A stretch of DNA of 64,000 nucleotides from a virus, in the IMG/VR virus record IMGVR_UViG_3300018080_000002, positions 93,358 to 157,357 of that record, one strand, 5' to 3'. A program made the position numbers and the translations under genes. How positions within the stretch are numbered: the first letter of the stretch is position 1; each line of letters opens with the position of its first letter. The notes under the pieces were generated by a model that did no database searches, was not told the origin of the DNA, and saw only the letters and a program-made list of their open reading frames with translations. Below, piece after piece: positions 18,921-63,337 of this stretch.

Positions 18921-19634
18921 ATGTCTGGTGCAGGATACGATTTTAGCCGTAGAACTGGAGAGGTTTTCATAAGAAACTTCGACAGGGGTGTTGTCGAAAC
19001 GATGGGGGGTTATATTGACAATCCATCTAGTTTTGGTATCGATATGGTTAAGATGCTCGGAGGGGATAAGAAAAATTATTTTATCGATGTCCCTGATGCG
19101 AGTGAAGATCCTATACCTGTTATTTTCGGGAATCCCGAAGCAATCAAAGAAAGACAGATTTATCCTAGTTTCTTAGTAATAAGGGGTGATCCTGCTCCAG
19201 CTTTAAACCGATGGCATTCTGTTGGCCAAAAGGAATACAGGATACCTGGACCAAATGCGGTAGTTGAATACTCTGCTGAGTATGGTGTCAGTGGCTATTC
19301 TGAATATGAGGAAACTGTTCAGAATTGGCCTTATGACATACCGTATCAAATCCAAGTATACGCTCGTTTAGAGAACGAAGTTATTCCAATGCTTAAAAAG
19401 GTGTTGAGGACATATAAGCCTTATTGTAGAATAATTTTACAGGATTCACTTGAAGAAACAAGGACTTACACTGCATTTCAACAGTCAGTTAATGATATTA
19501 GTGAGTTGGTTGATATAGCTGATAGGGTCAAAGCTTATTCCGTCGAACTTATGGTTGAGGGTGAGCTTACGTTAAGTGATCCTGTTGTTAAGCCGAGTGT
19601 TACAGACATTAGGCATACAGTTCATAGGCGTTAG
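18921..19634 (+). CDS. Tail terminator / sheath stabiliser (T4 gp15-like)
   Basis: PYDIPYQIQVYAR motif; immediately upstream of sheath. Confidence 0.6.
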   Translation: MSGAGYDFSRRTGEVFIRNFDRGVVETMGGYIDNPSSFGIDMVKMLGGDKKNYFIDVPDASEDPIPVIFGNPEAIKERQIYPSFLVIRGDPAPALNRWHSVGQKEYRIPGPNAVVEYSAEYGVSGYSEYEETVQNWPYDIPYQIQVYARLENEVIPMLKKVLRTYKPYCRIILQDSLEETRTYTAFQQSVNDISELVDIADRVKAYSVELMVEGELTLSDPVVKPSVTDIRHTVHRR

Positions 19635-19655
19635 ATTTTTTGGGAGGATGAAAAA

Positions 19656-21443
19656 ATGCCAGAATTTTTAAGCCCAGGTGTATATATCGAAGAAAGACCT
19701 TCCGGGGTTACTCCGATTACTGGTGTTTCTACCTCTAATTTCGCAGGAGTCGGTTACACAGAAAGGGGACCGTCTAATACTGCTACTTTGGTAACAAGTT
19801 TGGAGCAATATCTTCAGACTTTTGGTGGATACACGAAGTATAGTGATTTAGCGTTGGCGATGACTGCGTTCTTTAACAATGGTGGTTTAAGGGCTTACAT
19901 TGTGAGAGTGGTAGCATCGGATGCGGTTACGGCTTGGAAAAACCTTGCCTCTCTATGGAAGTTTTCAGCTTCATCTGAGGGTGCGTGGGGAAATTTACTC
20001 CGAGTTCGTATCCAGGGTAATGAAAACTATTATGACGCTGATACGGCGACATATAGTCGTTTTGACGTTTTTGTCGATGAAGAAAGTGCTGATGGCGAGG
20101 GAGATTTCTCTACTCAAGAGCAGTATGAAGGTTTGATTTTAGATGATTCTGAAGACAAGGATTACATCGTTTCAGTTCTTAATGATCAGTCTGCCTTAGT
20201 TGTTGCAGAGGATCTAGGGAATGGCGGTATTCCGACCGATCTTCAATCCACCCAATATACGGATGTTGCTTTGGGTACTGGTGATAACATTGAACAGAGT
20301 TTCAGTGCTAGTGTCTCCGGTATGGTTGAAGTAGCTGAAGATACGTTTATCGTAAAAGTTGATAGTTCTCAGGTTGCCGCTGACGATGGTGACGGTGTTA
20401 TTAGCGGTACTGGCGTAAGCGGAACGATTGATTATGAGACTGGCGATATCACTCTGTACTTTACCACACCTCCTGGTAGTGGTGCTGCGATCACTGCTGA
20501 CTTTTACAAGCGTGGTGATGATGCGGTTAATACAGAGCTTGAGAATGGAAGCGATGGAGATCCTACATCTATCGGTCGAAGTGAGATCAGTGATCCTGGT
20601 CTTTCTGACGATAAGCATGGGATCTATGCGATGGATGACGTTGAAGAAATGTTTTCTCTTGCCGTTCCAGATTTCTCAGATGATGAGCTGATTTCTCTTG
20701 ATTTGATTTCGTATGCTGAATTGAGGAAATATGCTTTTGCTATTCTTGATGTCCCTGCTGGTTACACTCCACAAAAGGCATTGAAGTACAAGCGTACTAC
20801 GCTTGGAAGTCTGAGCAACTATGCTTCGATCTACTATCCTAAGATCACGATTGCTGATCCTTTGAAGGATAATAGGCCGAGAAATATCAGTTGTGTAGGT
20901 CACGTTGCTGGTGTATTTGCTCGAACGGATACTCAGCAAACTGTCGGTAAAGCTCCTGCTGGCGTCAATGACGGTCGGTTAAATTTTGCTCTTGGTCTTG
21001 AAAGGGAACTTTCGAGAGGTGAGATGGATTTAATTTATCCTGCAAACGTTAACCCGCTGTATGTCAGTACAGCTACAGGGAGAGTTGTTTGGGGTGCTAG
21101 AACGCTGCAAGTAGTAGGGGATTTCACTCAGATCAACGCACGACGATTGTTCCAATTCTTAGAACTGAGCGTTTTCAACCAGACACATGATGTCGTGTTT
21201 GAGAACGTTGGTGCTGAGTTATGGTCACGTATCAAGATGAGAGTTGATGGCTTTTTCTTTGCTTTATTCCAAGACGGATATTTCAAAGGTGATAGCCCAG
21301 ATCAAGCTTATCGGATTGTGGTTGATCAAAGTAATAACCCACCCGCTATTCAGGCGCAGAGAATGGTAATTGTTGATTATTATGTGGCAGTTAATGAGCC
21401 TGGAGAATTTTTGAGGCATCGTTTTCAAAGACGCTTCGACTGA
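19656..21443 (+). CDS. Contractile tail sheath protein
   Basis: SPGVYIEE, G...RGP, FFNNGG.RAYIVRV, GAWGN, KAPAG, VWGARTL, INARRL, PGEFL. Confidence 0.95.
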   Translation: MPEFLSPGVYIEERPSGVTPITGVSTSNFAGVGYTERGPSNTATLVTSLEQYLQTFGGYTKYSDLALAMTAFFNNGGLRAYIVRVVASDAVTAWKNLASLWKFSASSEGAWGNLLRVRIQGNENYYDADTATYSRFDVFVDEESADGEGDFSTQEQYEGLILDDSEDKDYIVSVLNDQSALVVAEDLGNGGIPTDLQSTQYTDVALGTGDNIEQSFSASVSGMVEVAEDTFIVKVDSSQVAADDGDGVISGTGVSGTIDYETGDITLYFTTPPGSGAAITADFYKRGDDAVNTELENGSDGDPTSIGRSEISDPGLSDDKHGIYAMDDVEEMFSLAVPDFSDDELISLDLISYAELRKYAFAILDVPAGYTPQKALKYKRTTLGSLSNYASIYYPKITIADPLKDNRPRNISCVGHVAGVFARTDTQQTVGKAPAGVNDGRLNFALGLERELSRGEMDLIYPANVNPLYVSTATGRVVWGARTLQVVGDFTQINARRLFQFLELSVFNQTHDVVFENVGAELWSRIKMRVDGFFFALFQDGYFKGDSPDQAYRIVVDQSNNPPAIQAQRMVIVDYYVAVNEPGEFLRHRFQRRFD

Positions 21444-21531
21444 TCTGTGGTCTTTTACCGATTGTAACGGAGATTTAATTATGCTACTCTTTAACCAAGT
21501 AAATTTTGTACTTACGTTATGGAGTAGCCGT

Positions 21532-22515: not shown

Positions 22516-22998
22516 ATGGCTAGAGCACAATCAAGTGATTATTATCACGTCATGAAATTTCATGTTGTTGATAATCAAGATAGGCTTAATAGGTTAGCTG
22601 GTTTTACCAGCGTGACGGTTCCCGAATACACTCTTGAGGCTGTAGAGTACAAAGAGGGTATTTGGACGTATCGAAGAAAATATCCTGGGGATGTGACTGT
22701 TAGTGATATCACTCTGACGAGGGGTGTTGCTCGACAGGCGACCTATTTCTATGACTGGATAAAAGAGGCCATAGAGGGTAATCCGTACAGGGTTGACTTT
22801 GTTATTTATCAGTATCACAGAGAGGATGTTCAAGGCATGACATCTTATCTTGATGCAACGCCATCGAGACGGATTGAATGTTTTGAAGCTTTTCCGATCA
22901 GGGTTAAGCCTGGAGCGGATTTTGATTCTCAGACTGGCGATGTCAGTGTTGAGGAGATGGATCTGGCAATTGAGCGGTTTAACATTGTAGCTGAGTAA
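22516..22998 (+). CDS. Tail tube protein (T4 gp19/Afp1-like)
   Basis: GF..V..P...EY.EG...KYPG...DITLTRGV...YDW...AFP...VEEMDL. Confidence 0.9.
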   Translation: MARAQSSDYYHVMKFHVVDNQDRLNRLAGFTSVTVPEYTLEAVEYKEGIWTYRRKYPGDVTVSDITLTRGVARQATYFYDWIKEAIEGNPYRVDFVIYQYHREDVQGMTSYLDATPSRRIECFEAFPIRVKPGADFDSQTGDVSVEEMDLAIERFNIVAE

Positions 22999-23009
22999 TT
23001 GGAAAAGCT

Positions 23010-23558
23010 ATGGCTAGAGATCAGATTACTGACTTTCTGTTGTCTAATCGGTTTCATTTACTGGATGTATCTTTGACGATACCTCCAGTATTGATTCCTA
23101 TATGGGGTTTTACGAGTATCAGTGCTCCAGAGATGACTGTTTCTTATCGAGAGATAAAAGAGGGTAACTACGAGTTTCCCCGAAAGGTTGTCGAGCGAGC
23201 GTCTGTATCTGTTCTAACCCTAGAGAACGGAAGTCAGATCTTCAATTCCGGTTTTTGGGACTGGATTAGTAAGATGCCGGAAGGTAATTACGAGAAAAAA
23301 GATTTATTGTTGATGCACCTGACTGGTATTAACCCGACAGATTCAGATAGTGTTGGGATAGATATTGGTGGTTTTGGTGTGGCTACAGGGGAATTTGCAT
23401 TTAGGGTTCCAGGTAAGGCATGGCTGTTAAAAAATTGTGCAGCGGCTAGGTACAAGGCGGGTTCAGACTTTAGTTCTATGGGTGGTTCAGAGGTTAGCAT
23501 CCAGCAATTAGATTTAGAGTATGAGGAGTTTCTTGAGTTTAACGTAGGTATTGGTTGA
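23010..23558 (+). CDS. Second tail tube-like protein
   Basis: GFTSISAPE...EIKEGN...LTLENG...FWDW...IQQLDLEYE; paralogue of 22516. Confidence 0.8.
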   Translation: MARDQITDFLLSNRFHLLDVSLTIPPVLIPIWGFTSISAPEMTVSYREIKEGNYEFPRKVVERASVSVLTLENGSQIFNSGFWDWISKMPEGNYEKKDLLLMHLTGINPTDSDSVGIDIGGFGVATGEFAFRVPGKAWLLKNCAAARYKAGSDFSSMGGSEVSIQQLDLEYEEFLEFNVGIG

Positions 23559-27758: not shown

Positions 27759-28412
27759 ATGATAGAACAGTTGATTGAGCTGGAGGCTGCGAATAGATAT
27801 CAGCCTTGGGTTGATCCTGGGTTAGATCCTGAATTTGTAAGGATGAAAGATGCCGTTCAAGAGCATACCGTGCTTTGTATTTATCGTTTATATACAGCAT
27901 ATCAATTTCTAAAACATGCTTTACGAATGGTTCATGGCAACGTAGCTGATATTGGTGTTTATAAGGGTGGATCTGTCAGGCTTTTTGGAGAAATGGCGAC
28001 CAAAGCTGGTCGAAAGACTTATGGCTTTGATACTTTTACTGGAGAACCGGAAACTGCTCCTTGGATAGATATTCATAAAGAGGGCGATTTTTCTGATGTT
28101 AATTTTGAAGATGTTCAAAAATTTGTGAAGAATTTTGATGTTGAGTTGTTTAAGGGGGTATTTCCTGAGACTGGGGACGTTATTAAAGACGATAGATTTT
28201 GTTTTGTTCATATAGATGTTGATTTGTATTTATCATGCCAGGATTGTTTAGAGTTTTTTTGTCCGAGAATGTCTGATGGAGCGATTATTTTATTGGATGA
28301 TTATGGCACCAAGTCATGTCCAGGTATCAAGCTTGCTACGGATGAGTTTGTTTTTGACAAAGATAAAAGTTTGATATTTTTGCCGACAGGACAGGCGGTG
28401 ATTATCTGTTAG
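27759..28412 (+). CDS. TylF/MycF/NovP-family sugar O-methyltransferase
   Basis: DIGVYKGGS, YGFDTFTG.P, KG.FPET, FVHIDVDLY, LLDDYG. Confidence 0.88.
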   Translation: MIEQLIELEAANRYQPWVDPGLDPEFVRMKDAVQEHTVLCIYRLYTAYQFLKHALRMVHGNVADIGVYKGGSVRLFGEMATKAGRKTYGFDTFTGEPETAPWIDIHKEGDFSDVNFEDVQKFVKNFDVELFKGVFPETGDVIKDDRFCFVHIDVDLYLSCQDCLEFFCPRMSDGAIILLDDYGTKSCPGIKLATDEFVFDKDKSLIFLPTGQAVIIC

Positions 28413-30202: not shown

Positions 30203-30838
30203 ATGGAAGATCGTAAGCCGTGGAGATTGACCTGGGATGAAGAGGGATATACTTATGCTTATTTTGTTAAAGGGAAAGACAGTGATAGGCATGAGGAGTT
30301 ATTTAAGGAAGTTGTTAACCGACATATAGATAACAAGGCAGATTGTCTGCAAGTGGGTATCCCTCATGGTATTGATCGAGAATTTGGTGGAGAGGGTAAG
30401 AAATTTGGCAAAAATTTCATAGCCATTGATTTATATGATCAGAATCCCGAAATAGATTACAATGTGGATTTGTCCGATACTCCTTTCGATAGTGATTGTT
30501 TTGATTTTATAGTTTGTCCGGCAATATTAGAACATGTTAAAGATCCGTTTAAATGCGTAGATGAAATATATAGAATCCTTAAAAATGGCGGTGAAGTATG
30601 GTGTGAGGTTCCATTTTTTCAACCCTTTCATCCATTTAAGGGCTATAATGAAGATGATATGGGATTAGCATTAGATGATCAACAGATCGAATTTACAGGC
30701 GATGAGGATCATGGTGGAGATTACTGGAGGTTTACGCCTCAAGGTGTAAGGCAATTATTTAGGCGATTTGAATTGATCGAGATGTTCCTATGTAGAGAGG
30801 GTGGAATTTGTTTCTATGGCCGTAAACCGGAGGCATGA
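30203..30838 (+). CDS. Class I SAM-dependent methyltransferase (glycan-locus type)
   Basis: PF.SD.FD.IV..AILEHV.DP...EIYRILK.GG, VPF..PFH, DYWRFT..G. Confidence 0.82.
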   Translation: MEDRKPWRLTWDEEGYTYAYFVKGKDSDRHEELFKEVVNRHIDNKADCLQVGIPHGIDREFGGEGKKFGKNFIAIDLYDQNPEIDYNVDLSDTPFDSDCFDFIVCPAILEHVKDPFKCVDEIYRILKNGGEVWCEVPFFQPFHPFKGYNEDDMGLALDDQQIEFTGDEDHGGDYWRFTPQGVRQLFRRFELIEMFLCREGGICFYGRKPEA

Positions 30839-37232: not shown

Positions 37233-37236
37233 TATC

Positions 37237-48530: not shown

Positions 48531-48539
48531 CAGGGATTT

Positions 48540-48806: not shown

Positions 48807-48814
48807 GGTGAAAG

Positions 48815-50293: not shown

Positions 50294-50347
50294 AAATATC
50301 TTTGTTTTCCGTAATTTACGTCTTGTCGTTTTCCGTACATAGTGTCC

Positions 50348-50373
50348 ACTGAGAGGGGTTATTCCCTCTCAGT
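50348..50373 (+). terminator. Intergenic stem-loop (terminator or RNA-stability hairpin)
   Basis: ACTGAGAGGGG-TTAT-TCCCTCTCAGT; no clear U-tract. Confidence 0.5.
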
Positions 50374-50405
50374 ATCCGTTGCACTAAGCATAGTGGGGAA
50401 TATAG

Positions 50406-50705: not shown

Positions 50706-50713
50706 GGTAGGCG

Positions 50714-51490: not shown

Positions 51491-51515
51491 TCGCATAAAT
51501 GAGGCAGGGTAAGTT

Positions 51516-53312
51516 ATGACAATTCAATATTTTCAGTTAGCCGACGATTTCGCCAGGAGTAAAATCCGCAGTTTAATTGGCACACAGTTAAAAACCCAGA
51601 TGTATCTGATTGACGATAAGCTGGATTATCCGTTAGCTGTCGAGATCAGTGGCGATACGGTACAGATTGAGGCTGGAGTTAAACAGAAATATACATCTGA
51701 TGGCACAGATGACGGGGTTAGCGGAACGTATAAATGGAGGTTAGCACCGTTGAATGGTGCTGATGTTCAACCGTCTGCGAGCACATTAGATCTTACGGAC
51801 GGTTCAACGACTGGAGATTTTGCCAATAATCCTGCGACTGGTGTGACGATGACTGCTGGATACCATATTCAGATGGGTATCGAGCTTAGGGATGATGGTA
51901 AACACTATGTTGTTTGGGGTGATGAGTCTGCGACATCTGGAGGGACAACGTTTCCGAGGTTTAATTCGGATGCTCTTTCGGTGATGTTGATTCGTTTGGA
52001 AGATAGCGGAAGTGGGGGATCTTGGAATTTCAATACCCCGGATGATTCCGATGTTGAGATTATGCCTGTTGGTGGAGGTGCTGGCGGTGGAGGCGATACG
52101 AGCTTTAAGCTGGCGTCCATGTCTGGTAGCAGTGCCAATTTCAAAAAGGGCTATATCCGTTGGGATGACGGTATTGTATTGGCGGCTGGAGATGTTTCAG
52201 GTTCAGGGGATTTGGAGGATTTTTCGATAGATCTAACGGATCTCATAGCCAGTCCAGACAACAGTTCAACGTACTGGATGTATATAGATATTACGAAATT
52301 ACCAGACGAGAGAACTTACACCGATAATGGCCGAGAGGTATATCCGGTTTACGACGATTCTCATTTTGTTCTGAGAAAAGACATGCCGTTCATGAATCCA
52401 TCAAGGTTTGTTTTTGTTGGTGGATTTAAGACGCCAGGTTCCGGCAATACTTGGGTTGGATCAGAGTTTTGGTCTGCTGCGACTAGGCTGCATACTCAGT
52501 TTGGTGGTTTTATGGCCTTATGCGAGGTGTTTGAGGATACCTCGATTGACGGTGTTTCGGCATCGGTTGCATTGGAGCATGGTTTCAATCCAGATAGACC
52601 GCAGTTGGTGGAGATTGATTTTTACGATGATTCCACAGGCAAGCAGTATCCGCTGCTAAATACTAGCCATGTGTTAGATATAAACACGACGAATATCGTT
52701 GTAAATTCGCTAGGTTTGACATTTGATAGCGGCGACTATTTAGTGGTCAAAGCTTACAGGCTGCCAGAGTTACCGAATACGGTTCTGGATGCTACGAGGG
52801 TTTTTAGATCTTCATGGTACACCGATACATCGACGACTCAAGAGGCTCATGGATTAGATGATAAGCATGAGATTGTGAGTGCTGTTCTTTTAGAATGGGA
52901 TGTGGTTTCAGGCACTATCCGAGAAATCGATCAGGCGAGCTTGGTGAAATGGTGGGATGATGATAACATCTATTATGACTGGACTGGATTGAGTCCATCA
53001 GCCAACCTGAAATATCGGGTGATTACGTCTCCGACCGCTCAACCGTATGCGAAACCGTTCAAAGGAAATGTTTTTACGTTCACCGATGGAGCTACGTTGA
53101 CAAATGTTACGACAGCGTTCCCTTGTGATAAATTGTATTTTGATTTTCCGTTTAGCATACGAGCTGTTCAGAAAATGACGAATGGCTGGCAAAATGTGGA
53201 TAATATTGGTGCATTAGTCTGGGTGACTGATGATGTGAATAAGTATTTGAGGGGGGATATTTCGAGCTTGTCTCCGACATCGACGTACCCCGTCAAGATA
53301 ATGATCGAGTAG
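51516..53312 (+). CDS. Structural/fibre-associated protein
   Basis: MTAGYHI...WGDE module, GGGAGGGG linker, H-G-(F/L) type beta domains. Confidence 0.6.
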   Translation: MTIQYFQLADDFARSKIRSLIGTQLKTQMYLIDDKLDYPLAVEISGDTVQIEAGVKQKYTSDGTDDGVSGTYKWRLAPLNGADVQPSASTLDLTDGSTTGDFANNPATGVTMTAGYHIQMGIELRDDGKHYVVWGDESATSGGTTFPRFNSDALSVMLIRLEDSGSGGSWNFNTPDDSDVEIMPVGGGAGGGGDTSFKLASMSGSSANFKKGYIRWDDGIVLAAGDVSGSGDLEDFSIDLTDLIASPDNSSTYWMYIDITKLPDERTYTDNGREVYPVYDDSHFVLRKDMPFMNPSRFVFVGGFKTPGSGNTWVGSEFWSAATRLHTQFGGFMALCEVFEDTSIDGVSASVALEHGFNPDRPQLVEIDFYDDSTGKQYPLLNTSHVLDINTTNIVVNSLGLTFDSGDYLVVKAYRLPELPNTVLDATRVFRSSWYTDTSTTQEAHGLDDKHEIVSAVLLEWDVVSGTIREIDQASLVKWWDDDNIYYDWTGLSPSANLKYRVITSPTAQPYAKPFKGNVFTFTDGATLTNVTTAFPCDKLYFDFPFSIRAVQKMTNGWQNVDNIGALVWVTDDVNKYLRGDISSLSPTSTYPVKIMIE

Positions 53313-53325
53313 TGGAGGATGAATC

Positions 53326-54828
53326 ATGAGATATTTTTTACTTTTATTAGCGTTTGTTTCTAGTTTCGCCTTTGCTGCGAGAGAGGATTTTGTAATTCCA
53401 GCAAGGGAGGATGGTGGCAATGTCATTATTGCTCCGAAAGATGCCGGAGGTACGTCAAGGACTTTGTTAACTGCTGATCCTGATGCTCAACAGATAACAT
53501 TTGAAAAAAGTTATTTTAACGCCAATTTAGGTATTGGTGTTGCTCCGACATATCCTTTACAGGTTGCCGGATCTGTTAGGTTTCAGAACTCAGGAGATAT
53601 CACAGATTATGCTCATTTTGGAGTTGGTTCTGATGTTTATTTGGATCTGAAAAAAGATGATGGTAGTAAGATATTCTTAAGTACCGGAGGTAATAGCTAT
53701 ATAGATAGTGGATATAATTTTGGGATTGGGACTAGTTCAGTAGACGAGAAGTTACATGTAGAGACTGCGGCAGATAATACAACAATTAAGATTCAGACAG
53801 GCGCAGATGCTAATGCTGTAGTACGCTTCCAAAATGATACTAAATCTTACCTAACAGGAGTATTAGGCGGCACGTCAGATGCCTGGCACGTCTATGATGT
53901 TGATAATACAGCATCGAGGATGACAGTACAAGCTGATGGCGATGTTATCATAAATCAGAGATTAGCAATTGGCGGCTCCTCTCATGTACAGAGACTTACT
54001 GTAGGAAGTTCCTCGTCAACAACAGTCGAGGGGGCCTATTTTGTAAATGATTCTGGAAATATGACCATGGGGGTTAGTCAAGGCGGTGGTTCCTTGTGTC
54101 TAAATGATTCTGATGGTGCTACTGAACTTTGTGCTAGTGGTCAATTAGAGCTTGGTTCTAATAATACTGTCAGGGCAAAGATCGAAACTGATGGTGACCT
54201 TGTTCTATTGAAACGATTGCTTATTGATAGCGTAGGAGTTCAGCCAGAAATATGGTTGGACACACCATCTGGTTCTTATAATGGTCTTATTGGTTTTAGT
54301 GAAAACGGTGTAGACAAATGGAAAATAGACTACAATTATTCAAGTGAAAATCTATCTATTTATAGTAATACTTTAAGCTCAAATATTTTAGAATTTCAAC
54401 CAGGTGGAAGGATAAAAACTGACTATACTGTTGAAATAAATGAAGGGGTTTTTTCTGATAGATTTGAAAAGTCATCTGGTGCTAGTGGTTCCCACGCTAT
54501 CTTTTCCTTGAGTGGGTTTGCTTCTGTCAATTCTGCAGTTAAAATTGATACAGTAACATCATGCACACATGTATCTACATCGAACTACAGGCTGATTCAA
54601 ACAACACTATTAGATCAGTATGTGTCTAGCACATGGACACAAACAGATGTTCATAGCCAGGGGAATGCTGGAATAGTAGGCTATAGCACCACAGGCGATA
54701 CTATTCAGGCTAGGGTGTATTTGGGTGATGGTATCAATATTGTAAAATGTTCACATTCAGTGAATATAATAGCTACATCTACAGATGGCGCTGGGAACAG
54801 AAACGCTATCACATACACAAGACTATAA
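53326..54828 (+). CDS. Fibre-like adhesin with predicted Sec signal peptide
   Basis: MRYFLLLLAFVSSFAFA; GIG...P...L.V and RM.I..DG.V.I fibre repeats. Confidence 0.7.
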   Translation: MRYFLLLLAFVSSFAFAAREDFVIPAREDGGNVIIAPKDAGGTSRTLLTADPDAQQITFEKSYFNANLGIGVAPTYPLQVAGSVRFQNSGDITDYAHFGVGSDVYLDLKKDDGSKIFLSTGGNSYIDSGYNFGIGTSSVDEKLHVETAADNTTIKIQTGADANAVVRFQNDTKSYLTGVLGGTSDAWHVYDVDNTASRMTVQADGDVIINQRLAIGGSSHVQRLTVGSSSSTTVEGAYFVNDSGNMTMGVSQGGGSLCLNDSDGATELCASGQLELGSNNTVRAKIETDGDLVLLKRLLIDSVGVQPEIWLDTPSGSYNGLIGFSENGVDKWKIDYNYSSENLSIYSNTLSSNILEFQPGGRIKTDYTVEINEGVFSDRFEKSSGASGSHAIFSLSGFASVNSAVKIDTVTSCTHVSTSNYRLIQTTLLDQYVSSTWTQTDVHSQGNAGIVGYSTTGDTIQARVYLGDGINIVKCSHSVNIIATSTDGAGNRNAITYTRL

Positions 54829-54839
54829 GGGGAAACAAC

Positions 54840-54953
54840 ATGAAAACAATATTAATGATCATCGGTTTTTTAATTGTGCAAGAAAACCAGATGATGAAAT
54901 CATGGATATGCAACCAATACGATGCGCCTGAAAAACTATGTGTAAATGAATAA
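54840..54953 (+). pseudogene. Internally deleted relic of a signal-peptide/S74 fibre gene
   Basis: MKTILMIIGFLIV joined to QENQMMKSWICNQYDAPEKLC, homologous to the end of 56727. Confidence 0.6.
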
Positions 54954-54963
54954 GGAGATAGAA

Positions 54964-56088
54964 ATGAAAAAGTTGTTTCCATTTATAACGTTATTGGCTC
55001 TGTCTCTTATATCGACAGGAGCAGTAATAAAAGAGAGCAAGCAGGGTGGATCGATTGAATTTTACACGAATGAATCGGGTACTGTTGTTAAAAAAGCCGA
55101 GATTACGGCTGCTGGGAAAATGAAGGTGGATCAAATTGAGAATCTTTCAGGCGGGACACCTCCTGGGATGATTCCGATAGGCGGGATGGTAGCTGTTATG
55201 CCTACAATTCACGCGAACGCTTGGCAGCCTCCAGTAAGCGGGGCCATAAAAGACGGTTTTATGCGTGCTGATGGATGGCAAATCACGGCACAAAACGTCA
55301 CTGACGGATCGTTAATACCAGCCGGAACATATTTACCGAATATGGTTTATATGGTTCCGCGCGGCGATACAGATAGTTGTAATGGCTCATCTGCCTGCAA
55401 TACAAAAACAGGTGGAAGTGATAATGCAACACTGACAATGAATAACATACCAGAGCACAATCACGGAGCGACCGGATTAAGTGGTTCGATGGCCGCAAGT
55501 GAATTTGAGCATAGTCATTCATTGTCAGGAAGTGTTGCAGGTGGAACCGCAAGTTTGACGGGTTCTATAACAAGTGGTGGAGCAAGTTTGAGCGGAAGTG
55601 TTTCTGGGGGAACCGCAAGTGGAACCTTTGCTTCGTCAGGACATACACATGGTTTGGCTTCTGGTGCAGCGGCGATCGGTATGCCTGGAAATACAACAGG
55701 CTATTTAATTTTTTCAAGATCGGGTCAGGCTTTTACTGGCTCATATTATGCATCAATGGCATCAGCATGGGCATCAACAGGAGATAGCCACCTTGGAACG
55801 AACTTAATTGGAACAACCGATGCAAACACGGCGACAGCATCAGTATCATCAACGGCTGCATCGAATGGAACGCTTGGCGTGTCATACACGGCACCAACCA
55901 ATGGAACCCTCGCTGTTTCAAATACCCCTGCAAACAATGGAACGCTCGCAGTTGGAGCCGATAATATTACAACGGCAAGATCGGTTGGGATATCAGGAAA
56001 TACAGCCAACGCAGGGCAAGCCTCTCCAACTGCTGTTGATACGCTTCCTAATTATCAAAAAGTCGTTTGGGTTATTCGAGTATATTAA
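54964..56088 (+). CDS. Collar-domain short fibre (gp12-like) with predicted signal peptide
   Basis: MKKLFPFITLLALSLISTGA; IPIGGMV...GF..ADG collar; GG.....LT..NIPEHNH; HxH motifs; LPNY..V.WVIR. Confidence 0.7.
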   Translation: MKKLFPFITLLALSLISTGAVIKESKQGGSIEFYTNESGTVVKKAEITAAGKMKVDQIENLSGGTPPGMIPIGGMVAVMPTIHANAWQPPVSGAIKDGFMRADGWQITAQNVTDGSLIPAGTYLPNMVYMVPRGDTDSCNGSSACNTKTGGSDNATLTMNNIPEHNHGATGLSGSMAASEFEHSHSLSGSVAGGTASLTGSITSGGASLSGSVSGGTASGTFASSGHTHGLASGAAAIGMPGNTTGYLIFSRSGQAFTGSYYASMASAWASTGDSHLGTNLIGTTDANTATASVSSTAASNGTLGVSYTAPTNGTLAVSNTPANNGTLAVGADNITTARSVGISGNTANAGQASPTAVDTLPNYQKVVWVIRVY

Positions 56089-56104
56089 ATAGAAAGGATA
56101 TAAG

Positions 56105-56341
56105 ATGAAAGCAAGACATTGGGCAATGTTATCAACATTTATAACCGTTATCGTTTCTCTTGCAATTTTCTTGGTAATATGGGGATTAAAAAATCCACCG
56201 GAACCAAAGAAAGTTGGAGAGTTTGAGATTGAAGGAACAAAGACAACTTTATTCCAAGCAGGAGATTGTCAAATATATGTAACAAAGTGGCAAAGTCAAC
56301 CAGAGCCAAGATTTTTCTTCAGTTGTCCACAACGCAAATGA
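56105..56341 (+). CDS. Small membrane-anchored protein
   Basis: N-terminal TM helix; Cys pair. Confidence 0.6.
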   Translation: MKARHWAMLSTFITVIVSLAIFLVIWGLKNPPEPKKVGEFEIEGTKTTLFQAGDCQIYVTKWQSQPEPRFFFSCPQRK

Positions 56342-56349
56342 GGTAAAGT

Positions 56350-56718
56350 ATGAGATATTTAATGTTAGTTTTAATGTTAGTTTTAGTAGGTTGTACTACG
56401 TCTAAATTCAAGAAAGACGTATTAGACAATTTAACCTCTACGTTTGCTGGTCATGGTGAGTGTGGAGGTTATGATGATATGCGTGATGATTTAGATAGTC
56501 TTTTAGATAAATCAAAATGTTTAGAGGACAATGAAATTGCTCCTAATTACATGAAAAGTTTACCAGATGGAGTATGGTCAGCTAAGGCTATGTGTTGTTT
56601 TGCTGTTTTACAGGAGTTAGATTATTCTGATAAAACGGTGAAACCTAAAGATAGTTGGAATTGCAAGAAACCTATCGATTATGAAACGGCATTGTTAGAA
56701 TGTCAGAAATTGGAGTGA
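56350..56718 (+). CDS. Cys-rich lipoprotein
   Basis: MRYLMLVLMLVLVG-C lipobox; six further Cys. Confidence 0.7.
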   Translation: MRYLMLVLMLVLVGCTTSKFKKDVLDNLTSTFAGHGECGGYDDMRDDLDSLLDKSKCLEDNEIAPNYMKSLPDGVWSAKAMCCFAVLQELDYSDKTVKPKDSWNCKKPIDYETALLECQKLE

Positions 56719-56726
56719 GGTGAGTT

Positions 56727-58574
56727 ATGAGAAAATTATGGTTAGCATTAATTTGTTTGCTGTTTACATCGGTAGCGTTTTCCCGTCCTGTGGTGGTGGT
56801 AAACCCAGAGCAGGATGAGGACATTGAGTTTAAGGTGAATGATGGTGGTACTATTAAAGAGGCTTTGAATATAGATGGTGCTACATCTTATGTTAAGGTT
56901 CTTGAGAGACTGGGTATTGGGACTGCGCCATCCGTGACGTTTCATACGGTGGTGTCAGGAAATCATAATATAAGTAGATTGCAGGGTGGTGATTCTAACC
57001 ATACCAGTATCCAGTTGTCAAACTCAGACACTTCTGATTTGTGGGGTTTGGTTAGGGACGGCGGTGATTCTGACAAGTTTAAGATTTACTATAATACGAC
57101 TCCTGGTAATGATTATTTTACAATAAGTACTGATGGAAAAGTTGAGATAGATGGAGCTGGTACTGCTGCATCAGGATATGATTTAAAGGTAAACTCAGTA
57201 GCTACTACTGATGCTGGCGATAACAATTTTATGACTACGTTTTATAACGGGTCTAAAATGATCGGTGGGTTTTATAAAACTCATGCTAATGGGGGTATTT
57301 TAAGCCTTAAGAAAACAGATGGAACATCTAATGGTGTTTGGTTAGCTGGAGGTGCTACTTCCTATTTTGATAATAATGAACAGGGTGTTGCTTTTGGTGA
57401 TGCTGGTAAAGATTCAGATGTCCCGTTTTATTTCAATGCTTATAAGTCTGGTTGTGGTTATGCGTCAGGAGCGAATTACCCGAATGGTACTGTTGCAGCT
57501 TTTAGTAGAGCAGCGACCAACTGTACGGCTGGTATAGCGCAGGTTTATATAACAGGCGGTGGTCCATATGCTTATTTGTATTTAGGTGATCATACGAATC
57601 CATCAAGGGGTGGGATTTTCTACGATACTGATACACTGCATTTGGCTAATGGTGGGAGTGCAGTGAGGATAGATGCGTCTAAAACTGTTGTAGTTAATGG
57701 ATCTAATTTAACTGGTGGTCAGCTTGAGGTACAAAGTACAGGTAATGCTCAATTATCTATAGTGTCTGATAATGACAATAACACAGCGCAGGCTTTTGCT
57801 AGTATTTTCTTTAGTGACTACACTAATGCCAAGGGGGTTATTAGAGGTGACTATGGCGGTGCTAGTGAGGCTTTAAGGATTAACCCTAGTGGATATGGAG
57901 GCAATATATCTCTAGCTGAGGGTGGGGGTAAAGTAGGTTTTGGCGTTAATCCAACGTATTTACATCATGTAGAGTATAACACTAGTACTCGTATGGCTGT
58001 GTTTAAGAATACGAGTACATCTAATGGTCAAATTTTGGGTCTCGAAACAAACATAAATAGTAATTCAAATTTACAACAGATATTTCATATTTATACTCAA
58101 AGAGGTGGTGCTTCAAGTACTGAAATGTACGTTTCCAATAACGGCCAGATTTATGTAGATCCGGATAATTGGGCAACAGGCGGTACTGCAATAGGTGTAA
58201 GTTCAACATCAGGAGGGCATTTAACAACAAGTCCTTCAAGTAGGCGATATAAGGAAAATATAAGTACAGAAAATTTCTATAATGAAATAGATACAAGTAA
58301 GATTTTTGATTTAGAGCCTGTTGTTTTCGATTATAAGGTGGATGGTAGGCATTCCTTTGGCTACATAGCTGAAGATGTTTATCCCAATGTCCCAAGTGTT
58401 GTTTATATTGCAGAGCAAGAGGATGGTTCAAGGCAGATTGAATCTGTGGATTATAGAATGCTGTCAGTGCTCATTATTGAAGAATTTAAAAAGACTAAAA
58501 AAGAAAATGAATTAATGAAATCATGGATTTGTTCTCAAGATAATGCTCCAGAAGCATTATGCGTAGGTTATTAG
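56727..58574 (+). CDS. Trimeric fibre adhesin with signal peptide and C-terminal peptidase S74 (intramolecular chaperone) domain
   Basis: MRKLWLALICLLFTSVAFS; fibre repeats; SSRRYKENI...L.PV.F.YK...GYIAEDV...SVDY..L. Confidence 0.85.
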   Translation: MRKLWLALICLLFTSVAFSRPVVVVNPEQDEDIEFKVNDGGTIKEALNIDGATSYVKVLERLGIGTAPSVTFHTVVSGNHNISRLQGGDSNHTSIQLSNSDTSDLWGLVRDGGDSDKFKIYYNTTPGNDYFTISTDGKVEIDGAGTAASGYDLKVNSVATTDAGDNNFMTTFYNGSKMIGGFYKTHANGGILSLKKTDGTSNGVWLAGGATSYFDNNEQGVAFGDAGKDSDVPFYFNAYKSGCGYASGANYPNGTVAAFSRAATNCTAGIAQVYITGGGPYAYLYLGDHTNPSRGGIFYDTDTLHLANGGSAVRIDASKTVVVNGSNLTGGQLEVQSTGNAQLSIVSDNDNNTAQAFASIFFSDYTNAKGVIRGDYGGASEALRINPSGYGGNISLAEGGGKVGFGVNPTYLHHVEYNTSTRMAVFKNTSTSNGQILGLETNINSNSNLQQIFHIYTQRGGASSTEMYVSNNGQIYVDPDNWATGGTAIGVSSTSGGHLTTSPSSRRYKENISTENFYNEIDTSKIFDLEPVVFDYKVDGRHSFGYIAEDVYPNVPSVVYIAEQEDGSRQIESVDYRMLSVLIIEEFKKTKKENELMKSWICSQDNAPEALCVGY

Positions 58575-58638
58575 TAACGTTGTTTTGATGAATTACTGAG
58601 TGTATTGCTTAGTAAGAAACATTTTAAAGGAGTAAATT

Positions 58639-58842
58639 ATGAAAGAGAAATTGTCATTACCTACGTTTGTTGTTGTAATTTTTTTGGCTGGATGTTTGTT
58701 TGGCGCTCATTCTTTGTATTTGCATTTAAAGATTGATAGTGCGCTGTCAAACCATGCTGCATTACAGAAAGGTGTTGAGGGATTTGCCAAACAGGTCAAT
58801 GACGAGTTTAAGAAGCGCCCTGTAAAAGATGACAAAAAATAG
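58639..58842 (+). CDS. Small membrane protein (possible lipobox LAGC)
   Basis: Hydrophobic N-term then short helix; AAGGAG RBS. Confidence 0.55.
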   Translation: MKEKLSLPTFVVVIFLAGCLFGAHSLYLHLKIDSALSNHAALQKGVEGFAKQVNDEFKKRPVKDDKK

Positions 58843-58851: not shown

Positions 58852-59139
58852 ATGAGTGGACCTGCACAAAATTGCAAGTTTGATATTCCGGGTAGGTTTC
58901 CGCTCAAAGCTACCGATGTTAGAGAGATAAGTGTACTCCGCCTTCGTATTCCAGCATTAAGCGAGGTAGGAGTACAGGTTCATAACAGGGCTATATTGAA
59001 CCCGATATTTAAGAGGTTTGATAACTGGTGGGTTGATGCTATGGGTTCAGTGGATGTCCGTTATGATTTTGATTTTGTAGAGGCGATTCTCAGAAACGTG
59101 ACAGACTGTGATTTGGATATTTTGATCAGGATATTGTAG
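58852..59139 (+). CDS. Hypothetical (putative structural) protein
   Basis: 95-aa beta-rich ORF. Confidence 0.45.
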   Translation: MSGPAQNCKFDIPGRFPLKATDVREISVLRLRIPALSEVGVQVHNRAILNPIFKRFDNWWVDAMGSVDVRYDFDFVEAILRNVTDCDLDILIRIL

Positions 59140-59141
59140 AA

Positions 59142-59627
59142 ATGGTTCAAGGACAATGTGTACCGTACACGTTTGCAGACGAATTTCAGAGAATCAGAGA
59201 GTGTCTAGCCGAGCTAGGTTGCACTCCGAGTGATGGTTCTACGACTGGTGTACCTATCGATATCCGAACCAGTGGTCGTGTAGATATTTCTGGAGATTCA
59301 TTTCAGACTGTTTTGGAGTGGTGTATTCCTGACAATCAGAAGTTTCAGTTAAAACATTTTTATGTAAGTTTACTTGGGTTTTCAGGCGAAGTGGTTGTCG
59401 ATTACACTAGAGATAAGATAAACTATGAATTGATACGCAGTTATATTTTGAATGTCCAGAGTCCTAATTTTGAGGAAAATTTAGCTGGCTGTATTACAAA
59501 GTTTCCTAAAATATCTGATGAATACAGTTGTTTTCGTATTAGGGCTAAGATGAATGGTGGAGCATGCACAAACCTAGAAGGTACTGTGTTTGCTGCTATA
59601 AATGGTTTCCTACTTCCGTACCCGTAG
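59142..59627 (+). CDS. Putative decoration protein, beta-sandwich
   Basis: C-term domain parallels 59697 (ends AAINGF vs GRINGY). Confidence 0.5.
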   Translation: MVQGQCVPYTFADEFQRIRECLAELGCTPSDGSTTGVPIDIRTSGRVDISGDSFQTVLEWCIPDNQKFQLKHFYVSLLGFSGEVVVDYTRDKINYELIRSYILNVQSPNFEENLAGCITKFPKISDEYSCFRIRAKMNGGACTNLEGTVFAAINGFLLPYP

Positions 59628-59696
59628 ATTGTTCAGACGTTTAGGTTATTGGTTTTTTCTTAATTAATCTATGGTCATATCAGATGGAGGTAGCAC

Positions 59697-60431
59697 ATGA
59701 ATGATCTAGGTACAGTAATTTCCCGTTATAGGGACACATTGTCGGCATACTGTGACAATCAGTATGTTCCGATTGCGGTCGATCCTTATGGAAGGATCGT
59801 TTTTACTCACGAAGAATCAAGTGTAAGTGGTAGTGGTCTTTATTCGTCTGTCAGGATTGGCGACGGTACGGATCTGTTAGATGTTATCAATTATGGTGAT
59901 ACGGTCAGTGGCAACACAGGTCTTATTGTTTATGGGGAGGATGAAAGTGGTAATGCTTATCCGATTCCTATTGACAATGATAGGGTTAAAGTTGTTCTTC
60001 CTGATCAGCCTATTGGTGTTAGCGGTACTATCAATGTCGATTTTACTCCTGGTACGGAAGGTGATACGCACAGTGATGAAGCTGGTGCAAATACAGAGCC
60101 AGGTGTTGTCGATAGCGTTGGAACATCGACTTGGGTGGATGTTGTTTCTGTGCCTGTCGGTGCTGGTACGACATACAACCTATTAGGCGTTCATTACACA
60201 GCGGACAGGACGTCTCAGTTCCGTCTAATAGTAGAGGATAATGGTACTCCTGCTGAGTATATTGGAAACTGGATTGCGACACAGAACGTAGCTAGTTATG
60301 ACATGCAGCTCCAGAGAGCGAGAGAGATTGCTGGTGCTGCTAATAGGATTATTAAGCTACAGGCGATTCGTTTGGCTGCTTGTACTGTTGATGCTAATGT
60401 CTCAGGCCGTATTAATGGTTATACCGAATAA
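59697..60431 (+). CDS. Putative decoration/fibre protein
   Basis: P..VD..GR repeats, 4 VSG, GGAGG RBS. Confidence 0.55.
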   Translation: MNDLGTVISRYRDTLSAYCDNQYVPIAVDPYGRIVFTHEESSVSGSGLYSSVRIGDGTDLLDVINYGDTVSGNTGLIVYGEDESGNAYPIPIDNDRVKVVLPDQPIGVSGTINVDFTPGTEGDTHSDEAGANTEPGVVDSVGTSTWVDVVSVPVGAGTTYNLLGVHYTADRTSQFRLIVEDNGTPAEYIGNWIATQNVASYDMQLQRAREIAGAANRIIKLQAIRLAACTVDANVSGRINGYTE

Positions 60432-60476
60432 CGTTAGGTATTTTTGGTTATTGAGGATTCGATGTTGATTTTTCAG

Positions 60477-60497
60477 GGGGAGTTGTTCTAGCTCCCC
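60477..60497 (+). terminator. Intergenic stem-loop
   Basis: GGGGAGTT-GTTCT-AGCTCCCC. Confidence 0.4.
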
Positions 60498-60518
60498 TCG
60501 ACATATGTTTTGGGGTTT

Positions 60519-60878
60519 ATGATGTCTGAATTGTCTAAAATTGTTGAAACTTTAAAATCGTCTCCGGTTCCTTTGGTTGATTCTGATGAGGGTTGGGAGA
60601 CTGTTGATGAGATAGCTTTGACGCCAAAGACTGGTATAGAGATGAAAAAGATACATATCCAGGGTGCTCCTGGTTCGTTGGTTCGTATCAGGTCAGAGGC
60701 CATTAAGGGCAAATCCTACGATGCTACGATTTGGAAATATAAAAGTCGAGGTATCCCGAAAACGTTTGATTTAGATGGCTACGATTGTGGTGGTCACGAT
60801 GTTAGGCGTATAAAGATTCAGCGTCTTATAGGTAATGAGTGTGAGGCGAAGATAGAATACAAGCGTCACGGAGATTAG
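60519..60878 (+). CDS. Hypothetical protein
   Basis: Beta-rich, about 119 aa. Confidence 0.45.
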   Translation: MMSELSKIVETLKSSPVPLVDSDEGWETVDEIALTPKTGIEMKKIHIQGAPGSLVRIRSEAIKGKSYDATIWKYKSRGIPKTFDLDGYDCGGHDVRRIKIQRLIGNECEAKIEYKRHGD

Positions 60879-60881
60879 TAG

Positions 60882-61211
60882 ATGTATGATGTCCAGACTG
60901 AGATAGTTGACTCATTGATATCTGAGCACTATGAGGGTTCGGTTAGTGGTATTGGTGCGGTTGTGGATATTGCAAGCACAAAAGTTGTTCGTGGCGGTTT
61001 AGTTTATAATCCTACGGTTGGTCCTAATGCGACTACTAACGGGGTTAATAAGTATATCAGGGTGAGCTTAGACGGTGGTAGCGGTTGGATTACCATCCCA
61101 TATGGAGGCAAACTGTGCTTTGGTATTAGACCTGATGACGACACAGTTAAGATAGATGCTGGAGTAAGTGGCGGCATTGGTTATGAAGTAGTGTTGGCGG
61201 TGGAAAAATGA
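60882..61211 (+). CDS. Putative structural protein
   Basis: Beta-rich, 2 VSG. Confidence 0.5.
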   Translation: MYDVQTEIVDSLISEHYEGSVSGIGAVVDIASTKVVRGGLVYNPTVGPNATTNGVNKYIRVSLDGGSGWITIPYGGKLCFGIRPDDDTVKIDAGVSGGIGYEVVLAVEK

Positions 61212-61705
61212 GAAATCACCCAATTTGTTTGCATACGGTTCCTAGAGCTGGAGAGGTTCCTACTGAATATGTAAGTGGAATTCCTGAGGATGTTGATAAT
61301 GTTCAGGAGTTTTTGGAGTATTTGCTAACAATAGCTGGTATCTCTGCGTCTCCAGGTTTTACATGGGGTCGATCTGGAAATGTTGTTTCTAATTCATGGC
61401 TTTTGAATGATACGGTTCCGTCAAATTTGACTGGTAGAACTGTGTTTATTTATAACGCAGAGGTAATTCAATTTTTCACATCGAATCAAGATGATCCTTC
61501 GACATATACGCTGGGATTGTATGAACATGATGGTGTTACATATACGTTATTGGAGACTATCGCTGTTGTTGGTGCGAGGACGGCGACTAAGGATTTGACT
61601 GGAGTGTACCCAACAAAGGGTAATGAGTTGGCGGTTAAAGTGGAGAGTGGATCAGGTAAGAACATAACTTGTGGTGTTCTTATGAAAGGGACATTAGTGC
61701 CATGA
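61208..61705 (+). CDS. Putative trimeric decoration/fibre protein
   Basis: DNVQEFLEYL trimer-neck motif; C-domain paralogous to 61702. Confidence 0.5.
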   Translation: MRNHPICLHTVPRAGEVPTEYVSGIPEDVDNVQEFLEYLLTIAGISASPGFTWGRSGNVVSNSWLLNDTVPSNLTGRTVFIYNAEVIQFFTSNQDDPSTYTLGLYEHDGVTYTLLETIAVVGARTATKDLTGVYPTKGNELAVKVESGSGKNITCGVLMKGTLVP

Positions 61706-62499
61706 AACGAATTAAGTACGTTGGTCCTGGTGACTTTTATGAGATTCCTGAAGTCGGAGAGACTGTTAGCGGTACTAGTTTTTATGAAACTGGATACCGT
61801 GAGATTCACCCGACTATATATCCGTATTATGCTGATGCTGCTTATATCACTGATTCTACGTTGGTTTCTGGCATTGATATGGAATATTTAGTTATTAATG
61901 ACGGAGAGTTGGATGTAGCGGTTAGTGGTGTTGGAAATCAGTATGATGGTGTAGGAACTGAGAAACATGGGTTTGCCAGGGACTACATGAAATACCCTGA
62001 TGAGGCGTTTAATGTTAGGTTTAGATCTAGTCCTGAGCGATTGAATGGGTTTGAGTCTAAAGATGTTCAGAGAGCAATAGAGGAATCTAAGCAGTCGGCG
62101 TTTGGAAACGATTCTGATACGTTACAGTTTGCAAAACAGGGATCGTCTAGTAATAACACGTATTTGCTGACGCTGAATAATATTTCGGGTAATGATTCAC
62201 CTGATCATGTGCCGTGGGATGTTTTGTTTTTAAGATGGTCAGTAGCGACTGCTGCTGCTCCACCGGCTCCGTTTACGTTGGCTCTGTGGAAAATCAATCC
62301 AGATCATTCAGTGGCATCGATTGTATATACAGAGACGTTTTCTATTACTAACGGTAATTTTACGGGACATTCAGGCTATACGCTGTCAAATCAGAATATT
62401 GTTATTGAAAAAGGGTATGGTATTTATGTTCAGGTTACAGCTGTAGGCAATCCGAAGCCTACAGATTTGAACGTACTTTGTTGGACTAGGAGGTTGTAA
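61702..62499 (+). CDS. Putative trimeric decoration/fibre protein
   Basis: KDVQRAIEE motif; 3 VSG; start moved to ATG 61702. Confidence 0.5.
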   Translation: MKRIKYVGPGDFYEIPEVGETVSGTSFYETGYREIHPTIYPYYADAAYITDSTLVSGIDMEYLVINDGELDVAVSGVGNQYDGVGTEKHGFARDYMKYPDEAFNVRFRSSPERLNGFESKDVQRAIEESKQSAFGNDSDTLQFAKQGSSSNNTYLLTLNNISGNDSPDHVPWDVLFLRWSVATAAAPPAPFTLALWKINPDHSVASIVYTETFSITNGNFTGHSGYTLSNQNIVIEKGYGIYVQVTAVGNPKPTDLNVLCWTRRL

Positions 62500-62500
62500 G

Positions 62501-63337
62501 ATGTCTTTTAATGCGTGTTATGTGAAGCAGGTAACTTATGAGTCTAGGACATATTACAACAAAGTCTTTGATCTGAATGAGGAATACCTGATACCTGATT
62601 CTGACAGAATTGGGTTTATGAGTAACCTTGCATTGTTATCTGATGTTGTTAGTGGTGCAGCTTTAATAGGAAATGGGACTGAGTATTTTGATGATATTGG
62701 TTTCCAGTTAGATTGGTTGAGAAATAGGGATATTAATGCGCGAGACGATGAGAATCACTTAGAAATTAAGCAGGTGATGGCCAAGGATACATATCATTAT
62801 GAGCCGCGATCGTTGGACTTTACAACTGCCAAATATAACTCTCTTTATAATAGAAAACACGATGGAAATTGTATTCCTGACGGAACGGATTACGGTGATG
62901 CGTTCATGTATTTCTATAACGTCAGTGGCGTAGCGATGGAGAGAGATGACTATGATAGCGATGAGGATTTTCAGTTAGCGTTATCGAATAGCGTGAGTGG
63001 TTGTTGTAAGACGGTCGTTAAATTTATTCCTGACTATGATTATTCGATCAAGTCAGGTGTTTTGATGCTGGCTGAAGAGTGGGATTATGATGGATATGTT
63101 TGGTGTTTATTGGCTCCAGATATTCCGGAGGCATGGGGTGGTCAAGCTCCGTTTTTGGCTGGCGGGTATAATATGAGATTTTTTCCTGCCCGTTCGTATA
63201 TTCGCATGGATGGACAGACGACTTTCCATATACTACAGGATTTAGTTTACTATTCGCACGTTATAGGATTAGTCGTAAAACACGATCCTGGGGATCAAAA
63301 AGGTATCCAGATGATTTACGAGCACTATAAGGAATAG
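62501..63337 (+). CDS. Putative structural protein
   Basis: 278 aa; 3 VSG. Confidence 0.5.
   Translation: MSFNACYVKQVTYESRTYYNKVFDLNEEYLIPDSDRIGFMSNLALLSDVVSGAALIGNGTEYFDDIGFQLDWLRNRDINARDDENHLEIKQVMAKDTYHYEPRSLDFTTAKYNSLYNRKHDGNCIPDGTDYGDAFMYFYNVSGVAMERDDYDSDEDFQLALSNSVSGCCKTVVKFIPDYDYSIKSGVLMLAEEWDYDGYVWCLLAPDIPEAWGGQAPFLAGGYNMRFFPARSYIRMDGQTTFHILQDLVYYSHVIGLVVKHDPGDQKGIQMIYEHYKE

Follow-up and report, generated by a model that had tools for sequence, protein, structure and literature searches.

The DNA analysed here is a 64,000-nucleotide stretch (positions 93,358 to 157,357 of IMG/VR record IMGVR_UViG_3300018080_000002; hereafter the window) of an uncultured phage whose whole 157-kb record is referred to as G000. 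In this phage and its relatives, outward-facing tail and fibre proteins carry the tripeptide Val-Ser-Gly (VSG) about nine times too often. Open reading frames (ORFs) were called on the + strand, on which all window genes described below lie, and tripeptides were counted in their translations. The 26 ORFs between 39454 and 63337, which encode 7,739 amino acids (aa), contain 49 VSG, while 5.3 are expected from the composition of each protein. This total and the numbers per ORF exactly reproduce those of an earlier reading made from the letters alone (the sequence-only reading). The carriers comprise fibres, distal small proteins, the baseplate wedge (in its outer half) and the sheath (in a surface segment).

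The gp6/J-like wedge (39454..41781; 775 aa; PHROG 219 baseplate wedge, E 2e-35) has five VSG, at residues 359, 413, 471, 569 and 580. Its AlphaFold2 (AF2) model, with a predicted local distance difference test (pLDDT) score of 86.8, places four of them within two helices of about 130 residues (342-471 and 478-612), with the fifth at the turn between them; VSG placement in models was judged by secondary structure only. The two helices form an antiparallel hairpin of about 270 residues that is inserted in the gp6/J-like fold in this high-confidence model. The P2 gpI-like baseplate protein (42245..43102; 285 aa) has a tandem VSGVSG at residues 168-173. This site is kept in L001 and L004, which, together with L005 and L006, are loci of VSG-rich uncultured relatives retrieved by wedge-protein search, and the L001 orthologue weakly matches Pfam Tail_P2_I. 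The 1090-aa tail fibre (43568..46840), which matches a tail-fibre PHROG at its N-terminus, has nine VSG, seven of which are kept in the L001 orthologue (63% identity). Nine more occur in the 365-aa coiled-coil fibre (46870..47967), where six tandem 22-residue repeats with the consensus xEIDYVSGVLQxxIDxLExKHD form a segmented coiled coil and contribute one VSG each.

Fibre and minor tail ORFs 47979, 48540, 48815, 50714 and 51516 (47979..53312; 48815 belongs to a minor tail protein PHROG) carry 1, 0, 2, 2 and 3 VSG, respectively (8 in total). They are followed by a fibre-like, VSG-poor island (53326..58842; 3 VSG in 1,762 aa, where the ratio of 2.2 is not significant), which may be a recent acquisition or may encode proteins that are handled differently. 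The excess resumes in the distal small proteins 59697, 60882, 61208, 61669 and 62501 (58852..63874), with 4, 2, 1, 3 and 3 VSG, respectively (13 in 1,626 aa, ratio 14.8); PHROG and Pfam gave no family for these proteins. At the other end of the tail genes (18921..21443), a 237-aa protein with one VSG precedes the tail sheath (595 aa; assigned by tblastn to annotated sheaths). As read previously, the sheath has two VSG, at residues 220 and 254, and an ISG beside the latter. Between the sheath and tube genes lies a gene for a 339-aa HNH/homing-endonuclease-like, DNA-binding protein (21481-22500).

Control counts bear out the earlier claim that the excess is confined to outer virion proteins. The two tail tube proteins (22516..23558; PHROG tail tube, with gp19 Pfam matches on orthologues) and the tape measure (31624..35379; 1,251 aa, assigned by position and synteny) serve as internal controls and contain no VSG, nor does ORF 35703. 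The sequence-only reading had given zero for the tape measure, both tube proteins and the hub, and this stood for all except the hub, as the gp5-like hub ORF 37237 has one. Its count of three VSG in the first 18.9 kb of the window (the head region) was confirmed. The first 93 kb of G000 hold 13 VSG in 28,292 aa, and the whole genome outside the VSG-rich region holds 21 in approximately 41,000 aa. Within the head region, the 444-aa ORF at 14419-15753 encodes a DNA methyltransferase (PHROG 67, E 4e-60) and not a capsid protein. Distant from the tail module, three adjacent proteins of G000 53239-55511 (L010:13239-15511; L009 and L010 denote stretches of G000) have five VSG in 601 aa, and one of the three has a BppU_N baseplate domain.

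The excess was compared with composition-preserving shuffles, done per protein (n = 2,000). Shuffled sequences contained 5.4 VSG on average (standard deviation 2.3) and never more than 15, compared with the 49 observed. The resulting z of approximately 19 is the highest of all tripeptides; the runner-up reaches z 9 on just three occurrences. Permutations are near expectation (VGS 6, SVG 4, GSV 11, GVS 13, SGV 18), the modest over-representation of SGV stemming from VSGV. One-letter neighbours are similarly infrequent (ISG 6, TSG 6, ASG 11, VTG 6, VAG 6), and VTG is not enriched (6 versus 4.8 expected). The first-order (dipeptide) expectation for VSG is 16 to 19, well under 49, and all three positions are specific: G follows 61% of VS, V precedes 36% of SG and S occupies 54% of VxG.

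An artefact of composition, paralogy or DNA repetition was considered as an explanation of these counts, and one tandem repeat does supply six of the 49 sites. However, 40 VSG versus 5.0 expected persist without ORF 46870 (P 1e-22), and no shuffle exceeded 15. The flanks of VSG are heterogeneous, with a mild preference for S/G at -1 and I/T/V at +3, and both serine codon families (AGY and TCN) are used at VSG in approximately background proportions. Selection for the signal is thus at the level of the protein and not of the DNA; the sequence-only reading had likewise held that VSG is not a DNA repeat. The excess also holds in genomes of 40-55% GC. The shuffles and the comparison across genomes refute an artefact, which we consider practically negligible as an explanation.

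Eight relatives, of 40-55% GC, share the VSG excess in the same proteins; in their loci it starts at the wedge and continues through the fibres. VSG counts are 26 in L001 and 33 in L004 (2.9 expected in each), 25 in L005 (2.6 expected, with 17 further VSG downstream) and 8 in L006 (0.7 expected). The wider VSG-rich clade is represented by four IMG/VR genomes of 40-55% GC (G001 to G004), and across the whole genome no tripeptide ranks above VSG in G000, G001, G003 or G004. G002 (L035-L042) also shows a strong excess of GQT/QTG/TGA/ATG, probably due to a repeat protein, and proteins very rich in SPS/SSP/PSS are encoded by G029 (L133-L134), a small phage with a GT2-like (glycosyltransferase [GT] family 2) gene. 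The L005 phage (L139, L140) has two TnpB/Cas12f1-like (OrfB_IS605) genes within and just after its fibre module (L139:4883-6124 and L139:10648-11670), and neither product contains VSG. Cultured phages are only distantly related (at most 34% identity for sheath and wedge by tblastn), and a megablast search of the fibre region against GenBank phages gave no match. When IMG/VR was scanned with single proteins, namely the 1090-aa fibre and the small GT2 of the window, no relatives came up either.

A sister clade, which includes the complete genomes G008 and G017 and the locus L007, was covered by 20 records for gene presence and 51 loci for VSG. Its members have orthologous wedges (34-41% identity) and fibre modules. 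Over the 51 loci, VSG occurs at 1.38 times the expected number downstream of the wedge and at 1.29 times that number upstream of it; L007 has 2 VSG versus 3 expected. Wedge orthologues contain 1 to 9 VSG in the tagged clade and 0 to 2 in the sister clade. The tagged wedge positions vary among members, and sister sequences have ordinary residues at those positions. Likewise, the VSG sites of the sheath fall in one segment in G000, G001 and G003, where VSG-poor homologues have other residues. Among orthologues of G000 and L001 that are approximately 60% identical, VSG is retained at 20 of 26 aligned G000 sites (77%), compared with 22% for all triplets, and six further sites are private to each of G000 and L001. 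Judging from this comparison, the VSG sites are under purifying selection.

Strong conservation of sites is also what a structural role would produce. VSG could be an unmodified structural or assembly element of fibrous proteins, such as a hinge, a helix stutter, a mark of trimer register or a chaperone site, with the sugar genes serving another purpose, e.g., host envelope modification. The carriers are mostly fibrous or trimeric, every site contains glycine, and the predicted heptad pattern of the 22-aa repeat of ORF 46870 would put V at a core position and S-G outside the core. T4 fibritin, a segmented coiled coil whose linkers contain glycine, offers a comparison. However, the sister clade has orthologous folds in wedge and sheath that manage without VSG, the AF2 helices of the wedge run unbroken through it, and new positions have been gained on one scaffold. 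The middle serine is required (VSG 49 versus VAG 6 and VTG 6), and the fibre-like island at 53326-58842 has no VSG excess. VSG occurs in beta-rich fibres as well as in helices (the four wedge sites inside long helices agree with the earlier statement that the structural contexts are unrelated), which argues against one local structural role. Overall, the sequence comparisons indicate that VSG is not required by the fold, and we regard a purely structural role as unlikely. As VSG would be costly in a helix, is specific at three positions, is conserved once present and has been gained repeatedly on one scaffold, it behaves like a tag that something reads. In our interpretation, selection maintains VSG as a tag specific to this clade, a family of uncultured myophages of approximately 135-160 kb, on those tail proteins that face outward.

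The sequence-only reading had linked VSG to four genes of the window. The first encodes an NDP-hexose 4,6-dehydratase-like short-chain dehydrogenase/reductase (SDR), which is RmlB-like (3316..4293). TIGR01181 is by far its best model (317 bits, versus an equivalog cut-off of 365), and orthologues in G001, G002 and G004 score 195, 60 and 333 bits, respectively. The second encodes a TylF-type O-methyltransferase (27759..28412; PF05711, 53.3 bits versus a gathering score of 23), a lineage-specific accessory with a homologue only in G001 among G001 to G004. The remaining two, also lineage-specific accessories identified by Pfam, encode a class I methyltransferase (30203-30838) and a small GT2 (30835-31620; PF00535, 25.4 bits versus a gathering score of 23.3, a marginal match). 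They overlap by 4 bases and form an insertion (30203..31620) between a gp53-like gene and the tape measure gene. Neither is present at the syntenic site in L001, L004, L005, L006 or L007, and neither has a homologue anywhere in the genomes of G001 to G004; homologues of the GT2 elsewhere lie on unrelated short contigs.

It had been proposed that this GT2 reads VSG and that its joint action with the RmlB-like enzyme, the class I methyltransferase and TylF gives the virion a coat of methylated deoxyhexose. The Pfam identities were confirmed, the genes do lie among structural genes, and the GT2 weakly matches the SunS peptide-glycosyltransferase family (E 1e-4). However, because the GT2 and the methyltransferase are missing from the VSG-rich relatives examined, and TylF is present in one only, none of the three can be the reader. 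The occurrence of GT2 homologues on unrelated short contigs also speaks against such a role. As a sequon reader the GT2 is thus largely refuted, and we consider the proposal very improbable. Enrichment in relatives that lack the named genes had been put forward as a check, and the excess found there tells against those genes. Co-occurrence of VSG with phage sugar genes does hold at the clade level, where only the RmlB-like dehydratase of the four tracks VSG. A methylated rhamnose-type glycan would at best be a lineage-specific elaboration.

Genes that accompany the tag were sought by tblastn with all G000 proteins, 30 of which have homologues in G001 to G003. Five of these 30 are missing from G008 and G017: a GT4-like gene, a GT2-GT9 fusion, the RmlB-like SDR, and genes for a 295-aa protein and a 76-aa protein. 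The SDR is the only sugar gene of the window conserved alongside the tag, with homologues in G001 to G004 and the L005 phage and none in G008 and G017. The latter two genomes also have no GT2 or GT1_4 gene. The GT4-like gene is present in all seven VSG-rich genomes examined (G000 to G004 and the L005 and L006 phages) and in 0 of 20 sister records, where the GT2-GT9 gene is absent as well. In G000, the GT4-like and GT2-GT9 genes lie in a sugar island outside the window, which encodes RmlC, RmlD, a heptose-kinase-like PfkB protein, a cupin, an APS-kinase fusion, the GT2-GT9 fusion and the 839-aa intein-containing GT4-like protein. No ThyA-family hydroxymethylase was found in any of these genomes; glycosylation of hydroxymethylated DNA bases is therefore an unlikely target of the glycosyltransferases.

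The GT4-like enzyme is the candidate reader. Its gene follows the primase gene (G000 37101-39620; L009:17101-19620) and contains an intein of the LAGLIDADG type that splits it (Pfam LAGLIDADG_3 and Intein_splicing). In G004, an insertion likewise divides the orthologue (796-aa frame), and the L005 phage has inteins in DnaB and a helicase instead. The intein-free G001 orthologue (L030:2874-4064) gave a sub-threshold match to Pfam Glyco_trans_1_2 (18.7 bits), and the ESM Atlas neighbours are viral clusters with Glyco_trans_1_2/1_4 domains (scores 0.95-0.96, template-modelling [TM] scores 0.75-0.79); a sequence search of the PDB yielded no relative. Intein-free orthologues look like GT-B enzymes of the GT1/GT4 type. 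In an alignment of five sequences (A6; G001, G002, G003, L128 and L140), the N-terminal acceptor-side domain has a CxxC...CxxC consensus that may be a zinc ribbon, with only two cysteines invariant among the five.

Because G001 to G004 had been obtained via the GT2-GT9 fusion, the L006 and L005 phages, picked by their wedges, were also checked. In L128, which probably belongs to the L006 phage, the GT4-like gene overlaps the GT2-GT9 gene and follows the primase gene. In the L005 phage (L140), the VSG-rich genes stop abruptly and are followed by the SDR gene and, after DnaB and primase genes, by a GT4-like gene whose product is 36-40% identical to both G000 exteins. The island behind it encodes a GT2-ATP-grasp fusion, a HAD protein, two DegT aminotransferases, an acetyltransferase, a GT2 and a GT1-like enzyme, and no GT9. 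As this phage retains the tag with a different sugar island, the invariant set consists of the tag, the GT4-like enzyme and the 4,6-dehydratase-like SDR.

The GT2-GT9 fusion (P0119; G000 44699-46390, outside the window) was also considered as the reader. Its AF2 model has a pLDDT of 86.6, and many GT-A enzymes, polypeptide GalNAc-transferases among them, are similar to its GT2 half. The GT9 half (PF01075, 58 bits versus a cut-off of 22) has a GT-B fold related to lipopolysaccharide (LPS) heptosyltransferases, although it falls far under the cut-offs of LPS heptosyltransferase equivalogs (TIGR02193, 53 versus 185). It matches TibC in a profile search (E 1e-7) and by Foldseek (4rap, E 1.5e-11), while 3tov and WaaF match better. 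TibC heptosylates serine, not threonine, in the cytoplasm, e.g., Ser313 in QNSGG (PMC4358343), and the lack of VTG enrichment in this phage parallels that serine-only preference. TibC/Aah acting on TibA/AIDA-I also provides a precedent of a soluble GT-B enzyme that modifies many serines, some of them in Ser-Gly, of a fibrous surface protein (PMC4358343). However, the phage GT9 domain is not a member of this BAHT family (TibC/Aah), as it scored 16.4 bits against TIGR04414, with a cut-off of 200 (G000 45941-46201). Its C-terminal Cys4 (C522, C525, C538 and C545) is invariant in 14 homologues and lies approximately 28 residues past the segment aligned to TibC 210-317, near TibC C339-C370, where TibC has the iron finger that binds its protein substrate, the cysteines themselves not being aligned; in at least one generic GT9 structure, 3tov, the last of the four is missing. 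The L005 phage is VSG-rich although it lacks GT9 and has a GT2-ATP-grasp fusion; the GT9 domain therefore cannot be the universal reader, and the GT2-GT9 fusion was rejected in that role.

Selection with turnover of sites would suit any reader, and two of the five clade-specific genes lack an assigned function, i.e., those for the 76-aa protein and for the 295-aa protein (G000 53239). Family searches with the latter gave no match, and it is the first protein of the VSG-bearing trio described above. The serine could thus be phosphorylated, acylated or ADP-ribosylated, or VSG could be a docking site for a decoration protein or host factor. However, no kinase, acyltransferase or ADP-ribosyltransferase is found among the clade-specific genes, and sugar enzymes make up three of the five. 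A reader other than a glycosyltransferase is, in our judgement, improbable.

The most likely reading combines a constant serine sequon and a constant initiating enzyme with a variable glycan, and the sequence patterns leave it about evenly poised between right and wrong. From the tag, its distribution, the selection pattern and the gene co-occurrence, we infer a serine modification, the enzyme responsible and the type of sugar. In the cytoplasm of the infected cell, the VSG serine would be an O-glycosylation acceptor, to which the GT4-like enzyme would transfer the first sugar before or during assembly of the tail proteins. The RmlB-like 4,6-dehydratase (3316) would supply a 6-deoxyhexose precursor. 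Enzymes that vary among lineages, including the TylF, methyltransferase and GT2 of the window, would then extend and decorate the glycan with outer sugars particular to each lineage; across the phages, this variable set includes GT2-GT9 fusions, methyltransferase or ATP-grasp fusions, Rml enzymes, heptose-kinase-like proteins, APS kinase and aminotransferases. More tentatively, these elements may amount to a phage "glycocalyx" system, in which a VSG sequon in every outward-facing tail protein is served by a conserved, hitherto uncharacterized GT-B reader and a hypervariable sugar-gene island diversifies the glycan, like bacterial O-antigen loci; this broader proposal is plausible but may well be wrong.

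Several points weigh against the reading of a constant sequon with a constant initiating enzyme. The phage is uncultured, and the tag is known here from sequence alone. All VSG-rich genomes seem to belong to a single clade; the tag and the glycosyltransferase genes could therefore have been co-inherited without a functional link. In two unrelated phages of approximately 40 kb, whose GT2-GT9-like genes are distant, VSG is not clearly in excess (7 VSG versus 3.2 expected and 4 versus 4.7), which leaves the confounding by phylogeny unbroken. Retrieval of G001 to G004 via the GT2-GT9 fusion introduced a selection bias toward that gene, and the tally of seven genomes for the GT4-like gene leaves out the phages of L001, the closest relative, and L004. 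Furthermore, the glycosyltransferase island sits among replication genes and not among late genes, and the major head and tube proteins have no VSG excess, unlike in mycobacteriophage glycosylation. Finally, the four wedge sites in predicted stable helices would be an unusual place for an acceptor unless they were modified before folding.

Very short serine contexts are known from other O-glycosylation systems, such as the Bacteroidota sequon D(S/T)(A/I/L/V/M/T) and the Ser-Gly acceptor of eukaryotic xylosyltransferase. VSG resembles both in being a minimal motif around serine that is spread over unrelated proteins. Those systems act on exported proteins in the periplasm or Golgi and use other enzyme families, and to our knowledge neither is phage-encoded or virion-directed. 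The closest phage precedent is mycobacteriophage virion O-glycosylation by phage-encoded glycosyltransferases, which is described as adding glycans to capsid and tail tube subunits at their C-termini (Freeman et al. 2023, Cell Host Microbe, cited in PMC12619734). There, as here, enzymes that the phage encodes are proposed to act during infection on proteins of its own particle. In contrast, no short sequon is described for the mycobacteriophage system in the account cited, and the candidate acceptor reported here, recognized purely from encoded proteins, is an internal tripeptide across baseplate, fibre and sheath-surface proteins. The acceptors described in that account also differ in location, as the tube proteins have no VSG here and the head region has three, and the enzymes differ. 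Literature searches on sequons in fibres and on glycoproteomics of phages gave no relevant result.

Whatever its chemistry, VSG is a simple sequence marker of the outward-facing proteins of an unannotated phage. If the proposed glycosylation is correct, the annotation of many unexplained phage glycosyltransferase and sugar-nucleotide genes would be affected, and glycoengineering could make use of a sequon that is portable and very short and whose cognate enzyme is soluble. Fibre expression for phage engineering would be affected as well, as Escherichia coli would leave the fibres bare. Tail fibres set host range and are the first part met by a host or predator. If true, the proposal would mean that they are routinely sugar-coated across a family of environmental phages, which would affect how their structures and receptor binding are read.

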